Source of the DNA: Eledone cirrhosa
Taxonomy: Eukaryota
Assembly: GCA_964016885.1 (NCBI GenBank)
Contig: OZ024752.1
Coordinates: 45,446,001 to 45,510,000, forward strand
DNA length: 64,000 nt
Direction of reading: 5' to 3'
Part shown: in pieces, positions 9,957-22,691 of the stretch
How the letters are laid out: each line of letters opens with the position of its first letter
Numbering within the stretch: the first letter of the stretch is position 1
The notes under the pieces: generated by a model
What the model was told of the DNA's origin: nothing
The model's database searches: none
The model's input: only the letters and a program-made list of their open reading frames with translations
Translations under genes and position numbers: made by a program

Positions 9957-10408
9957 GATATTAAATAAATGGAAACTATATTTATAAAACCATATTTATT
10001 TCATTATATATATTTCAGGGATAACATATTAACAATATGCTATGCTTTCCTCAGACAAAATACAATATAGACAGTTTTATAGATAAATAGATTTGACATA
10101 CCGTTCAACATCGACTTGTATTTGAAAAGTTGATTTGGCAAATCAACTTTTCAAATACAAGTCGATGTTGAACGGTATGTCAAATCTATTTATCTATAAA
10201 ACTGTCTATATTGTATTTTGTCTGAGGAAAGCATAGCATATTGTTAATATGTTATCCCTGAAATATATATAATGAAATAAATATGGTTTTATAAATATAG
10301 TTTCCATTTATTTAATATCATAAATATACTCCAAATACTTGTCGAGTGCTTTTATATCAGTTATAAATATTTACTAGTTATAACCCAACAATTTAAATAT
10401 AACTTTCC
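9957..10408. mobile_element. Family A fold-back element (Penelope-like pLTR type) in (TA)n
   Basis: Inverted arms 9957-10137 / 10139-10319 with a 1-nt spacer, ~90-nt tail, (TA)n on both sides. Homologous to 18771-19091, 22249-22691 and 49601-49850. Confidence 0.75.
10214..10280 (+). ncRNA. Type I hammerhead ribozyme motif (mirror copy on - strand near 9996-10062)
   Basis: Stem I tattttgt, core CTGAGGA (10222), stem II ..TAGCATAT/ATATGTTA.., GAAA (10260), palindromic stem III ATATATAT, AUA site, then atgaaata closing stem I. Confidence 0.7.
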
Positions 10409-10735
10409 ATATATATATATATATATATATATATATATATATATATATATATATATTCTCAGCAATATATATATATATATATATATATTCTCAGCAATAT
10501 ATATATATATATATATATATATATATATATATATATATATTCTCAGCAATATATATATATATATATATATATATATTCTCAGCAATATATATATATATTC
10601 TCACAGCAATATATATATATATATATATATATATATATATATTCTCAGCAATATATATATATATATATATATTCTCAGCACTATATACATATATTCTCAG
10701 CACTAATATATATATATATATATATATATATATAA

Positions 10736-10946
10736 AGTATAAAGAAAGTGCTCAAGCACAGAAATGCTATAAAGATAGCTTATAAAATAGAGTGAAGACC
10801 CTTTAAAAGACAGCATCTGGGAAATATGGGGTTCAATTCCTCATCGCGCCCAATGGCAACTTCTTTTTCCGTCTTTTAAGGGTCTTAACCCTATTCTATA
10901 AGCTATCTTTATAGTATTTCTGCCCTTGAGCACTTTCTTTATACTT
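10736..10946. mobile_element. Fold-back element with tRNA-like spacer
   Basis: Imperfect ~75-bp arms 10736-10811 / 10871-10946. Spacer contains GGGGTTCAATTCCTCATCGCGCCCA (T-arm/B-box-like). Confidence 0.55.
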
Positions 10947-11213
10947 ACATATATATATACTTATATATATATATATATATATTTATGTATATATATATAT
11001 ATATATATATATATATATATTTATGTGTGTATATATATATATATATATATATTTATGTGTGTATATATATATATATATATATATATATTAAATAGAGTAT
11101 TTTCAATGCTATAGAAATAACATTAGCAAAAACACAGCCCTGCATATATGGAAGACATGTGCTGCGTATGGCTGTGACAGCATGCAATGAAAACAATAAT
11201 AATAATAATAATA

Positions 11214-11620
11214 AAACCAGATATTATATTCAAAGAATACAAAGAAAATAATCTCCGCAGACGACAATATATCTCCCAAGGAAATAGAGAAACTCTCCAA
11301 ATATAAAGATCTAGAGATAGAAATAACTCAAATGTGGTTGATGAAGATAGAAACAATACCTATAATTATAGGTGTTCTAAGAATGATAAAGACACACAGA
11401 CAAATACATAACCAAAACCCCAGGACTCACAAATATATACAGCATACAGAAAATAGCACTACTAGGCATTGTACATATATTACAAAGAGTACTATCCACA
11501 CCACTAAAAACTACACTGCACATACCCAAGGCACAAGAACTGTGCTCGGTAGTGCAGTGATAATGCACACAATAATAATGATGATAATAATAATAATTAT
11601 AATAATAATATTAATAATAA
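11214..11620 (+). pseudogene. R4/Dong-like (restriction-like endonuclease) LINE 3' end in (TAA)n
   Basis: KYKDLEIEITQMW..IETIPIIIG is typical of the R4/Dong RLE C-terminus. (TAA)n on both sides. Confidence 0.7.
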
Positions 11621-11621
11621 T

Positions 11622-11913
11622 GATTTCTTTATTAACCACAAGGGTTTACACAAAGTAGACATTAAGGACAATACAGGACAAAAAAGGACGGTACAAATGG
11701 GTATTTCTGCGTGTAAAAAAAAAACAAAAAAAACAGAGGATGTAACAAAAAAAGAAAGAACAATGAAAAATTCTCCAATAGGGGGGAGACTTCTGAAGGC
11801 CATCGTGGAGAAAGCCCATTAAAAAAAAGCCACGGTGACCCTGACCACCAGGGCAAGTGCCCTCTCCCAGTTTTCCACCTTCAATTTACAGGCATATCCT
11901 CAGAGTAGGTCCA
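11622..11913 (-). mobile_element. 3' end/UTR of an L1/Tx1-like LINE
   Basis: Reverse complement shares ACTCTGAG...AGGGCACTTGCCCT..TCAGGG with the end of the 41600-42350 fragment. Confidence 0.5.
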
Positions 11914-19091: not shown

Positions 19092-19486
19092 TATATATAT
19101 ATATATATATATATATATATATATATATATATATATATAAGTATATATATCTGTGTGTGTGTGTGTGTGTGTGTGTGTGTGTGTGTGTGTGTGTGTGTGT
19201 ACATAATATTTATGGTATATTATCATTGCTTTAACAAATATTTTTTTCCTCACAATTGCCTTGGTTTCATGCACACATAATATATATATGCATACACAAT
19301 ATCATACAAAAAATGTTCTGCTACACATGTGTATATACATACGTATATATATATATATATATATATATATATATATATATATACACACACACACGCACAC
19401 ATATATATATACATACGTATATATATATATATATATATATATATATATACACACACACGCACACATACACATATATATATATACAT

Positions 19487-19691
19487 AAAACATAGCGAGC
19501 TGTGTAGTTATTGTAAACAAAGTGTAAAATAGTAATATGGACGTAAACAAGAGAAGAAACCCTTCATCAGCTGTTAACAGCAGATCATAGATGTTTTGGC
19601 ACTTAAAACAGTTTTAAGTGACGAAACATCTATGATCTGCTGTTAACAGCTGATGAAGGGTTTCTTCTCTTGTTTACGTCCATATTACTAT
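19487..19691. mobile_element. Family C fold-back element
   Basis: 81-bp arms 19529-19609 / 19611-19691 with 2 mismatches, contains CTGATGAAGGG, ~40-nt tail, (TA)n flanks. Confidence 0.65.
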
Positions 19692-20883
19692 ATATATACA
19701 TATGTATATATATATATATGTATATATATATATATATATATATATATATATATATACATATATATATATATACATATATATATATATATATATATATATA
19801 TATGTATATATATATATATACATATATATATATATATATATATATATATGTATATATATATATACATATATATATATATATATATATATACATATATATA
19901 TATATATATACATATATATATATATATATATATATACATATATATATATATATACATATATATATATATATATATATATACATATATATATATATATATA
20001 TATATATATATATATATATATACATATATATATATATATATATATATATATATATATATGTATATATATATATACATATATATATATATATATATATATG
20101 TATAGATATATATATATATATATATATATATATATATATATATATATATGTATATATATATATATGTATATATATATATATGTATATATATGTATATATA
20201 TGTATATATATATATATGTATATATATGTATATATATATATATGTATATATATGTATATATATATATATGTATATATATATATATGTATATATATGTATG
20301 TATATGTATGTATATATATATATATGTATATATATATATATGTATATATATGTATGTATATGTATGTATATATATATATATGTATATATATATATATGTA
20401 TATATATATATATATATATATATGTATATATATATATATATGTATATATATATATATATGTATATATATATATATATGTATATATATATATATATGTATA
20501 TATATATATATATATATATATATATATATATATATATATATATATATGTATATATATATATATATATATATATATATATATATATATATATATATATATG
20601 TATATATATATATATGTATATATATATATATGTATATATATATATATGTATATATATATATATATGTATATATATATATATATATGTATATATATATATA
20701 TATATGTATATATATATATATATATATGTATATATATATATATGTATATATATATATATATATATGTATATATATATATATATATATATGTATATATATG
20801 TATATATATATATATATATATATATATATATATATATATATATATATATATATATATATATATATATGTATATATATATATAA
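19689..20883. repeat. Long interrupted (TA)n tract, representative of many (e.g. 14172-14960, 26420-27230, 29030-29895, 33210-34665, 42350-42755)
   Basis: Directly visible dinucleotide repeats. Confidence 0.98.
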
Positions 20884-21796
20884 ATAAAATATATATGTGC
20901 GTGCGTGTATGAGTGAGTGTGTGTGCATGTCTCAGTTATTATCTGGTGATAGGGCTAAGTAAGATGAATAGCAATCATGTAAACCAGATTTGAGAGAAGA
21001 TTCTTATTCTTTCTCCCATCACAGCAATGACAACCTTAGGATATATATATATATATATATATATATATATACATGCATATATACACACACACATACATAT
21101 GTGTGGATGCATTTCGATGTAAGTTTCTTCATATTTGTATATATATATTTATTTTGTACATATATATACATATACACACATATATATATATATATATATA
21201 TACATATACATCTATATATACATATACATCTATATATATATACATATATATATACATATATATATATATATAAGATCCAATTGTAATTATATTCTTAATA
21301 ACACAACCTTAATAACACAAATCGATTTAATTTCTCTTAAAATAACATTATTATTCAACCATAACAACTTTAGTTAAACAGTAATTCCTCTATAAAATAA
21401 TTTATATTGAGCACTTTGTTTATTCATCAATGCAACAATTAATGTCTAATGATGGTCTGTTTATGAACACAGCTCGAAATTGTTGGTTAAATTCTCAACC
21501 AGTAGTTGCCTATACACAAATTAATTTTTTAAATATATATTTTTTTTACACCTTTAGATAATTTCTGAATTAATTAGTATAGTCTAATTATCTAATTTGA
21601 TTTTCTTTGTATGTTTGTCTAATTTATCAAACATAACACAACACATTAAGTTATATTACTTTCTGTTATATTTGCTGGCATAACTTTACTCTCTTGTACG
21701 TTTTACTCTTGTTTTATATATATATATATATATATATATATATATATATATATATATATATATATATATATATATATATATAGTGTGTGTGTGTGT

Positions 21797-22037
21797 TAGG
21801 TAATTCCGAAGAAAAAGCCAAGGAAAAAAGAGTGCTCTATGTATAGAACAGAGCTATTTAATTAGAAAGTAAACAACACAAAATATAACTACTACATTAC
21901 CAAACGTTTCTGGACCTTAGACAATATTGATATATGCCTGGATTGTTCATCAGATAGAGATGGTAACATCTCTGCCTAGGGTCCAGAAACTTTTGGTAAT
22001 GGAGTAATTATATATTGTGTTGTTCACTTTCTAATTA
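21797..22037. mobile_element. Family D fold-back element
   Basis: Imperfect arms 21859-21923 / 21973-22037. Minus strand carries CTGATGA...GAAACGTTTGGTA. A solo arm copy lies at ~1989-2092. Confidence 0.62.
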
Positions 22038-22248
22038 TATATATATATATATATTATAAGAACAGATTAAAGTTTAAGCAAAGAATCGCTGCTTTCACCC
22101 TTAACAGGATCTTCTTAACGGGAGTTTCAGAAGATCCCGTTAAGGATGAAAGCAGTGATTCTTTGCTTAAACTTTAATCTGTTCTTATAATAAATACTTG
22201 TTCTACGAGTTTATATATATACTTGTATATATATATATATATATATAT

Positions 22249-22691
22249 GTAAAAGTTTTATTTAAAATTGTTGGGATACAACAAGTAAATATTTTATAAC
22301 TGATATAAAGCACTCGACAAGTTTTTGGAGTAGATATACGATATTAAATAAATGGAAACTATATTTATAAAACCATATTTATTTCATTATACATATTTCA
22401 GGGATACCAAATTAAAAAATGGTATGCCTTCATCAGACAATACAATATATAAACAGTTTTATAAATAATTTTGACGTACCCTATTAGAAGCGACCATTAC
22501 TTTTGGAAGCTGTCTTCCAAAAGTAATGGTCGCTTCTAATAGGGTACGTCAAAATTATTTATAAAACTGTTTATATATTGTATTTTGTCTGATGAAGGCA
22601 TACCATTTTTTAATTTGGTATCCCTGAAATATGTATAATGAAATAAATATGGTTTTATAAATATAGTTTCCATTTATTTAATATCGTATAT
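22249..22691. mobile_element. Family A fold-back element nested in family B element
   Basis: Arms ~22334-22509 / 22514-22691, spacer CTGT, tail 22249-22333. Confidence 0.78.
22581..22645 (+). ncRNA. Type I hammerhead ribozyme motif (mirror core at 22430-22436 on -)
   Basis: TATTTTGT-CTGATGA(22589)-AGGcATACCA..TGGTATcCCT-GAAA(22626)-TATGTA-TA^ATGAAATA. Predicted cleavage after 22637. Confidence 0.78.

Follow-up and report, generated by a model that had tools for sequence, protein, structure and literature searches.

Hammerhead-bearing palindromes in TA repeats of Eledone cirrhosa as truncated ends of a Hydra-clade Penelope-like retrotransposon

What is the origin of the palindromes of roughly 250-450 bases, sited in TA repeats and carrying hammerhead ribozyme motifs, that occur in the genome of Eledone cirrhosa? 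The question is raised by a stretch of 64,000 nucleotides (nt) (NCBI GenBank assembly GCA_964016885.1, contig OZ024752.1, positions 45,446,001 to 45,510,000 of the forward strand), called here the window, in which four such copies lie at 9956-10408 (c1), 18770-19089 (c2), 22249-22686 (c3) and 49600-49846 (c4). Each of them is flanked by (TA)n or TA/TG-rich tracts, and pairwise likeness among the four is 79-95%. It is practically certain that the palindromes are 5'-truncated pseudo-long terminal repeat (pLTR) ends of an abundant autonomous Penelope-like element (PLE) of the Hydra clade, and the best explanation as a whole, which we regard as very likely, is that such truncated ends were paired by two reverse-transcription events on opposite strands.

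The copies are not a product of chance, because a 29-mer lying just 3' of the predicted ribozyme cut has 27,093 exact matches in the genome (3.0 Gb) and its reversed control has none; a 24-mer from the c1-type tail has 653 exact matches, and a pattern from the start of the family open reading frame (ORF) has 316. That ORF is absent from the window; elsewhere, one hit was a locus (L020) in which an inverted arm adjoins an antisense reverse transcriptase (RT). In the wider L020/L031 locus the order is inverted arm, RT from its YRDD motif onwards, linker, endonuclease, a 1.4-kb 3' untranslated region (UTR), sense arm and tail. A search with the endonuclease gave 150 scored matches, of 61,742 candidates, at 88-100% identity; all 15 long loci chosen by endonuclease hold an arm, and all five long loci chosen by paired tails hold an endonuclease. 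Intact ORFs of 737-745 amino acids were present in five of the six units checked, among them the 3,815-nt unit of L073, whose 737-residue ORF encodes RT and a GIY-YIG endonuclease. Direct pLTRs lie about 3.8-4.0 kb apart in L067, L071-L073 and L075, most of them with an inverted copy; direct tandems of 3.8 kb are thus present among the loci, and partial tandems accompanied by inverted 5'-truncated copies are the arrangement that characterizes pLTRs.

A single ORF with a telomerase-like RT plus, at its C terminus, an endonuclease of the GIY-YIG type is the organization of endonuclease-bearing (EN+) PLEs. The protein contains RWR (RIRWRAF), DKT (SDKTNN), YRDD, CNCRDRSKC, an IVY..YVG endonuclease motif, CDLC and CRH; R for K in the RWK motif is also found in two of seven relatives checked. 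The linker is of the Hydra type, with CxCx5C; CxxC and CxH lie around the E and N motifs, and there is no CCHH. The predicted structure (predicted local distance difference test, pLDDT, 87) matches TERT best, the nearest database proteins are 38-42% identical, an alignment profile search returned a weak match to retron RT (E=0.016), and a sequence search of the PDB does not name the ORF. By every motif tested the assigned clade is Hydra, the named Hydra proteins having been compared by eye, and the family is new within this known clade and may already bear a name in repeat libraries. As a separate observation, the 61,742 endonuclease candidates suggest many further Hydra-like families in this genome, and L078 and L081 contain distant endonucleases of 31-39% identity.

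The first-pass annotation, which read the window alone, had proposed a Penelope-like identity, arms that are inverted pLTRs and a (TA)n target, and had recommended looking for copies joined to RT plus GIY-YIG ORFs. All of this was borne out, since the arms are contiguous with such an ORF, and the four copies, their TA flanks, hammerhead motifs and predicted cut sites were real, with ends within a few bases of those it gave. Its non-coding, retrozyme-like family has to be abandoned, as the arms are truncated ends of an autonomous Hydra-clade element, and so does its picture of symmetric palindromes, as a tail of 88-91 nt is present on one arm only.

The anatomy of the copies can be followed on the L073 unit, where start motif A lies at 3541, the CUGA box at 3629, the predicted cut after 3678, site 1 at 3727, site 2 at 3815, and an ATG about 50 nt past site 2. 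In each palindrome an arm that ends at site 1 is joined head-to-head to an arm that ends 88 nt further, at site 2. The parts of the window copies are the following.

9883..9955, no strand: (TA)n target tract left of c1.
9956..10138, minus strand: inverted, tail-less arm of c1, ending at site 1 (..AATATCG) against (TA)n; 96.4% identical to L073 unit positions 3543-3735.
CUGA at 10054, predicted cut after 10005, minus strand: hammerhead in the inverted arm of c1.
10139..10320, plus strand: sense arm (pLTR) of c1, beginning 5 nt past the putative start motif.
10214..10279, plus strand: minimal type I hammerhead of c1 (predicted fold), with stem I, CUGAGGA at 10222, stem II and GAAA at 10260; in its 3' part, palindromic stem III AUAUAUAU, AUA triplet and predicted cut after 10271.
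10321..10408, plus strand: 88-nt tail of c1, site 1 to site 2.
10409..10734, no strand: (AT)n tract right of c1.
18770..18940, minus strand: tail-bearing piece of c2, with its site 2 end at 18770, truncated within stem II and without CUGA box.
18941..19089, plus strand: tail-less arm of c2, ending at site 1; CUGACGA at 18991, GAAA at 19029, predicted cut after 19040; 100% matches elsewhere.
22249..22515, minus strand: tail-bearing arm of c3, with its site 2 end at 22249; CUGA at 22436, predicted cut after 22388; 91% identical to the L067 unit.
22516..22686, plus strand: tail-less arm of c3, ending at site 1; CUGAUGA at 22589, GAAA at 22626, predicted cut after 22637.
49600..49726, minus strand: tail-bearing piece of c4, truncated 3' of the cut site and without hammerhead.
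49711..49846, plus strand: tail-less arm of c4 with damaged hammerhead; CUGAUGA at 49747, GTAA for GAAA at 49785, predicted cut after 49796.

Hammerheads number two in c1 and in c3, on opposite strands, and one in c2 and in c4; c1 is 96.7% identical to L073 unit positions 3546-3815, the final 270 nt of this 3,815-nt unit.

The 3' ends of the pieces are nearly invariant. In the c1 set of 83 pieces, which was selected by tail and is therefore biased to site 2, 62 end at site 2, 21 at site 1 and none elsewhere; the 40 pieces of the c3 set comprise 21 ending at site 2, 17 at site 1 and two at other positions, and the c2 and c4 sets use the same two sites. The 88-91-nt stretch between the sites corresponds to the tail extension of EN+ PLEs. 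Insertion is into (TA)n, as in the Hydra clade: 58 of the 62 site-2 junctions run into AT repeats, eight of these 58 keeping the element's own ATGTAT, and the remaining four continue into the 5' UTR. AT-like bases follow both sites in the RNA, and so does a similar motif of 30-45 nt (3, 0 and 0 of 2000 shuffles were as good for the three copies compared). In contigs of public runs, whose type is unknown and which may derive from the assembly's own sample, depth drops 13-fold at site 2; it also rises near the start motif, a rise confounded by repeats skipped at 4560-4626. By analogy with the two-site initiation of a Poseidon element (Frangieh et al. 2024, PMC11167929), sites 1 and 2 may be regarded as putative priming sites.

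At the opposite end the pieces are variable, with a preferred limit. Of 70 c1-set 5' ends that lie inside their locus (13 more run off its edge), 15 are no more than 3 nt, and 32 no more than 15 nt, away from motif A (TCACT); the start motif marks the same 5' limit in c2 and c4, and short arms tend to begin there, 88 nt upstream of CUGA in the ribozyme. The non-template base before motif A is G in 10 of 19 rows; for starts at +1 to +8 the figure is 7 of 34 (p=0.019), and G makes up 17.5% of the background; four of the 23 rows (L069, L070 and both arms of L199) were dropped by hand, as there the element continues upstream. An extra G is expected from copying of a cap. Together, the extra G and the peak of 5' ends were read as a transcription start, at which the RNA would begin, capped, at the A of (T/C)CACT, and run-off of the RT at this capped start is a conclusion that we somewhat favour. 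All 110 5' ends examined are more than 5 nt away from the predicted cut, which indicates that the templates are mostly uncut or religated.

This last finding bears on a circular, retrozyme-like route, in which the hammerhead would cut tandem transcripts, the monomers would be ligated, and the RT would copy the circle across the religated site. Such a route has been proposed for PLEs (Cervera and de la Pena 2014, PMC4209133), and it would explain the cDNAs crossing the cut site, the direct 3.8-kb tandems, the pLTRs reaching above the start motif, and the conserved fold. As a circle lacks a 5' end, this route would leave unexplained why the 5' ends peak so sharply and with an extra G; cleavage was dispensable in vitro, with no reads ending at the cut (PMC11167929), and the short head-to-tail arrays typical of animal retrozymes were not seen among the fetched loci. 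We consider the circular route improbable, and it could apply to long copies only.

How, then, do the palindromes arise? In the first 100 arm matches, from the C1 stretch, neighbouring arms within 8 kb were head-to-head in 25 cases, tail-to-tail in three and on the same strand in five, and 11 of the 25 head-to-head pairs were less than 400 nt apart; that stretch has 3.7 arms per Mb compared with 9.0 genome-wide and is hence not representative, so that the few thousand short hairpins obtained by scaling it to the genome are a rough figure. After merging of loci fetched twice, the centres of short palindromes all differ (52 of 52), several of them hold short insertions copied from the arms, and in many pairs the 5' ends of the two arms can be unrelated. 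Junction insertions copied from arms resemble the products of polymerase-theta joining. Unique centres and unrelated 5' ends point to two separate cDNAs. Moreover, 9 of the 60 loci selected by tail have an inverted piece whose start is far upstream of the tail piece, and in the long loci L065, L070, L076 and L083 the ORF-bearing piece lacks the tail, which is on an inverted piece. A two-primer origin of the palindromes is, in our judgement, likely.

The same features exclude a foldback DNA transposon or miniature inverted-repeat transposable element (MITE), i.e. a non-autonomous palindromic unit mobilized by a DDE transposase and containing a hammerhead by chance, an alternative also named in the first-pass annotation. 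The short inverted-repeat shape and TA flanks resemble those of MITEs, whereas the ends are asymmetric, the centres all different and the 5' truncation variable, and the arms are continuous with an ORF for RT and GIY-YIG endonuclease; in place of symmetric terminal inverted repeats, a fixed unit and a DDE partner we found asymmetric ends and an RT partner. For this family we consider the proposal refuted, and its probability as very small.

A more serious competitor is fold-back copying, in which one cDNA primed at site 2 would snap back and copy itself to site 1, the TA-like stretch there joining the target. It would predict what is seen in many short pairs, nearly the same 5' end on both arms (e.g. 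3540/3540, 3527/3527 and 3541/3541), and this counts against the two-primer origin; the near-perfect hairpin centres, as in c1, and the rare variants common to both arms in some pairs, two of them in c1, would follow as well. Yet fold-back cannot yield an inverted piece longer than the tail piece, or one not overlapping it, as in the nine and four loci mentioned above, and single arms (L121, L087 and L123) begin at the same motif. Rare variants common to both arms are as frequent in long as in short pairs, four in 16 long pairs (some arms of which were counted twice) and 12 in 47 short ones, six pairs with arms in different clusters being omitted; this fits a common source RNA. As a general mechanism fold-back appears unlikely, and it may account for part of the short copies.

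The equal frequency of shared variants fits two cDNAs made from one source RNA and decaying independently afterwards, and the pattern argues against an assembly mirror or strong conversion. Unshared variants number 13 in long and 56 in short pairs. Gene conversion between adjacent arms, considered as a further candidate, was unsupported, as shared variants are equally common in long pairs. Mirrored or chimeric reads might be suspected from the 99.7% mutual complementarity of the c1 arms; across the family, 63 pairs show 69 positions private to one arm, the tail is fixed and asymmetric, and contig depth drops at site 2 in the public runs, so that an assembly artefact has next to no probability.

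The two-primer reading can be formulated as follows. The GIY-YIG endonuclease would nick both strands in (TA)n, and from each nick the RT would prime one cDNA, using two fixed positions in the RNA that are 88 nt apart. The AT-like bases after each site would pair with the TA primer, the duplicated motif after each site would position the RT, and host end-joining would fuse the two cDNA ends. If primed in the leader, cDNAs would run off at a length of about 187 nt from site 1 and 275 nt from site 2, which would explain why short palindromes are common; long copies would stem from priming in the downstream pLTR.

A separate problem is the function of the hammerhead. The CUGANGA and GAAA boxes, the UH site and the three stems of a minimal type I ribozyme are all present; the core is kept in 244 of 262 arms, and N7 takes all four bases. 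Across six subfamilies, none of the nine core columns and 16 of the 31 columns of stem II plus loop are variable, and stem III varies only between A and G, its palindrome being kept through G-U pairs. Core, stem III and H17 together have one variable column of 18, compared with 32 of 109 in stem II and the distal flanks (p=0.024; p=0.06 for the core alone). In 12 aligned copies, set against slid controls that fall far below, 92.8% of cells pair and four stem II pairs change on both sides. The GTAA of c4 is private to that copy, common variants of its subfamily keeping GAAA; a G-U pair in stem II of c1 is likewise private, its subfamily having a G-A mismatch there. Among the best 150 of 575 Rfam matches in the window no hammerhead was listed.

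A transcript spanning c1 is predicted to fold as a hairpin of 181 bp, in which the hammerhead would be blocked, so that the hammerheads of palindromic copies are predicted passengers; as stem II covaries between subfamilies, selection would act on source lineages. The ribozyme itself would be weak, dimer- or protein-dependent and mostly uncut on templates. We find it rather likely that it cleaves in some context. The first-pass annotation had located the CUGANGA boxes, stem II arms and ATATRTAT correctly and had rightly recognized a minimal type I hammerhead with palindromic stem III. Its statement that the core varies only at position 7 is correct as to the free N7 and fails at c4, and the selection on the fold that it proposed is visible between subfamilies and cannot be read from inserted copies. 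A dimer within one palindrome is precluded, as hammerheads on opposite strands cannot pair in cis.

Several of our results weigh against the account given here, or against parts of it. A Pfam search names no domain in the ORF, and GIY-YIG was matched, weakly, in 3 of 43 aligned relatives. The loci were picked by similarity and are mostly young. The 5' ends of the c3 set are more spread than those of c1 (4 of 40 within 3 nt of motif A, 14 of 40 within 15 nt), the count of extra Gs is small (11 of 23 if all rows are kept), and the tandem upstream pLTRs of L073 and L072 reach above the motif, so not all templates start there. Initiation was described without homology to the cut DNA (PMC11167929), unlike the AT-like microhomology proposed here. 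As to the ribozyme, 51 of 500 shuffles reach four covarying pairs, the 12 sequences being related, and in the c1 subfamily one stem II pair is disrupted. The stretch of 26 nt on the 3' side of the cut, which takes part by pairing in an extended stem I, equals the core in conservation (two of 26 compared with none of nine variable columns, p=0.55); greater conservation of the core than of all flanks, which the first-pass annotation had made a touchstone, was therefore rejected with respect to this 3' strand of stem I and holds with respect to stem II and the distal flanks. Stem II closes with A-U in 9 of 12 aligned copies and not with the usual G10.1-C11.1, and the bulge at 9/10.1 is lacking as well; several Hydra hammerheads also have U before GAA (PMC8557442 supplement). 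Finally, monomer folding prefers an inactive rod by 5-8 kcal/mol, and stabilization by a dimer was not upheld, as a rough energy estimate does not beat two monomers.

Other elements of the window share some of these traits. A palindrome family at 50547-50641 (related loci L204-L223; 685 candidates genome-wide) has a hammerhead-like CTGATGA..GAAAC..GTC on both arms. Unlike in the family described above, the centre hardly varies, one 22-mer in either orientation making up 11 of 13, and the palindrome may be mobile as a whole or be truncated at a very sharply defined position. The element at 19482-19688 (related loci L224-L243; 1042 candidates), a palindrome with a one-sided tail in (TA)n and with CTGATGAAGGG, has a similar arm-plus-tail anatomy and, in the window copy, no GAAA box downstream of the CUGA box; a parent of this family was not found. 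In 40 loci of these two families there were three tblastn matches to a Hydra ORF, contiguity not being shown. Further inverted-repeat elements in TA tracts lie at 10735-10946, 17841-17959, 21861-22035 and 22055-22189; that at 21861 has CTGATGA..GAAACGTTT on the minus strand, and those at 17841 and 22055 form one family with a degenerate hammerhead-like stretch. Palindromes at 3238-3385, 13046-13138, 15794-16402 (with arms of about 230 nt) and 17242-17371 have no obvious hammerhead. Single hammerhead-like motifs resembling those of c1-c4 at 49991 (minus strand) and 57278 (plus strand; CTGATGAGG..GAAATATAT) possibly come from older sister families. A short stretch, CTTATCGAGCCCTCT..CACATTTATT, shared by 18000-18050 and 22707-22757, near c2 and c3, and present also beside L004, is likely the end of another TA-targeting element.

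The window, in which a repeat search was dominated by microsatellites, further contains a U6atac small nuclear RNA match (53514-53629, plus strand; 74.5 bits against a gathering score of 33), which lies between two copies of TTGTAGTGCACCTGAGCACT, merges at its 5' bases with an (ATG)n run and may be a retrocopy. It also contains an intronless TMEM187 ORF of 267 amino acids (58138-58938, minus strand; 88% to Octopus bimaculoides and 83% to Argonauta), a degraded RT fragment of the long interspersed nuclear element type (36921-37606; RVT_1, E=1e-4), homogeneous tandem arrays at 35553-36568, 43341-44776 and 47738-48180 with units of 48, 65 and 48 nt, and a 1.7-kb (ATC/ACC)n tract at 45832-47557.

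The formation of inverted pLTRs and tails of PLEs and the role of their hammerhead were stated to be open (PMC8557442, PMC11167929). The family described here offers a large and young natural data set, with its thousands of exact arm matches, 316 ORF-start matches and intact ORFs, and yields predictions at base level (two priming sites, a duplicated RNA motif, a capped start and uncut templates), which make the questions of inversion and hammerhead function testable in a published in vitro assay. For annotation, it is of note that the ORF is missed by Pfam and that short copies resemble MITEs. In Octopus bimaculoides the share of loci with the capacity for long, near-perfect double-stranded RNA (dsRNA) was reported to be exceptional, and hyper-editing the strongest, in a study that left this species out of its repeat analysis and did not name the repeats, as far as the part used here goes (PMC5625713); palindromes like ours are a candidate, at the level of hypothesis, for the source of that dsRNA potential and hyper-editing. 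A bolder and doubtful extension would regard short palindromes as twin strong-stop products, made by a dimeric RT that holds two uncut capped leaders paired via stem III and primes one at each duplicated motif; the hammerhead would then be mainly an RNA dimerization module, and the thousands of near-perfect hairpins from this family and its sister families a main source of the long dsRNA hyper-edited by octopod ADARs.

Much of what is described here has precedents: inverted pLTRs, tails, TA targeting, minimal hammerheads, opposite-strand pairs, two-site initiation and an octopus Hydra family are already published. A literature search that did not extend to Repbase, Dfam, subscription journals or most supplements turned up nothing on this family or its duplicated motif, on an origin of PLE palindromes by twin priming or capped run-off, or on the editing of Penelope palindromes in octopus. 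The Hydra clade of C-terminal EN+ PLEs includes Hydra-1_Obim of Octopus bimaculoides (Craig et al. 2021, PMC8557442). The present family resembles that clade in its single ORF with RT followed by GIY-YIG, in RW(K/R), DKT, YRDD, CxCx5C, CxxC and CxH without CCHH, in its (TA)n target, and in a pLTR with a tail, inverted 5'-truncated copies and a hammerhead with palindromic stem III (PMC8557442). It differs from Hydra-1_Obim in hammerhead and protein, as compared by eye from supplement rows, and from the clade in its unit of 3.8-4.0 kb (under 3 kb in most Hydra elements), its tail of 88-91 nt (30-40 reported) and RWR for RWK (PMC8557442), as well as in its about 27,000 exact arm matches.

Metazoan PLEs were shown to contain minimal type I hammerheads with a long stem II and palindromic positions around stem III; most motifs are in truncated copies, low activity is expected, and opposite-strand pairs 100-700 bp apart were noted in Schistosoma (PMC4209133). 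Our hammerheads share the long stem II, the stem III palindrome, the opposite-strand pairs, the truncated copies and the expected low activity, and differ in having no bulge at 9/10.1, A-U instead of the conserved G10.1-C11.1, an AUA triplet, an 8-nt AU-only palindrome and an extended stem I (PMC4209133). Like animal non-LTR retrozymes, the copies are short and AT-rich, with a type I hammerhead, and are likely mobilized by a PLE (Cervera and de la Pena 2020, PMC7229834). A retrozyme array, however, is head-to-tail and codes for no protein, and its hammerheads are canonical, whereas here the arms end a coding unit and neighbours are head-to-head, and a retrozyme identity was therefore rejected (PMC7229834).

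In Poseidon PAc of Anolis carolinensis the tail is delimited by two internal sites at which the RT starts, AT-rich DNA undergoes cutting and extension on both strands, and uncut RNA is the main template (PMC11167929); the present family is like PAc in having no ends at the hammerhead cut. PAc belongs to another clade, and its start sites lie in the ORF without target homology, whereas those proposed here lie in the 5' UTR and are followed by AT-like bases and the duplicated motif; in the part of that paper used here, inverted palindromes or capped run-off were not derived (PMC11167929).

In L1 twin priming, two target nicks prime two cDNAs and an inversion results. The origin that we propose resembles it in the two nicks, the two cDNAs and the inversion. 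In L1 the cDNAs cover adjacent parts of one RNA, while here they would overlap, and both contain the pLTR.

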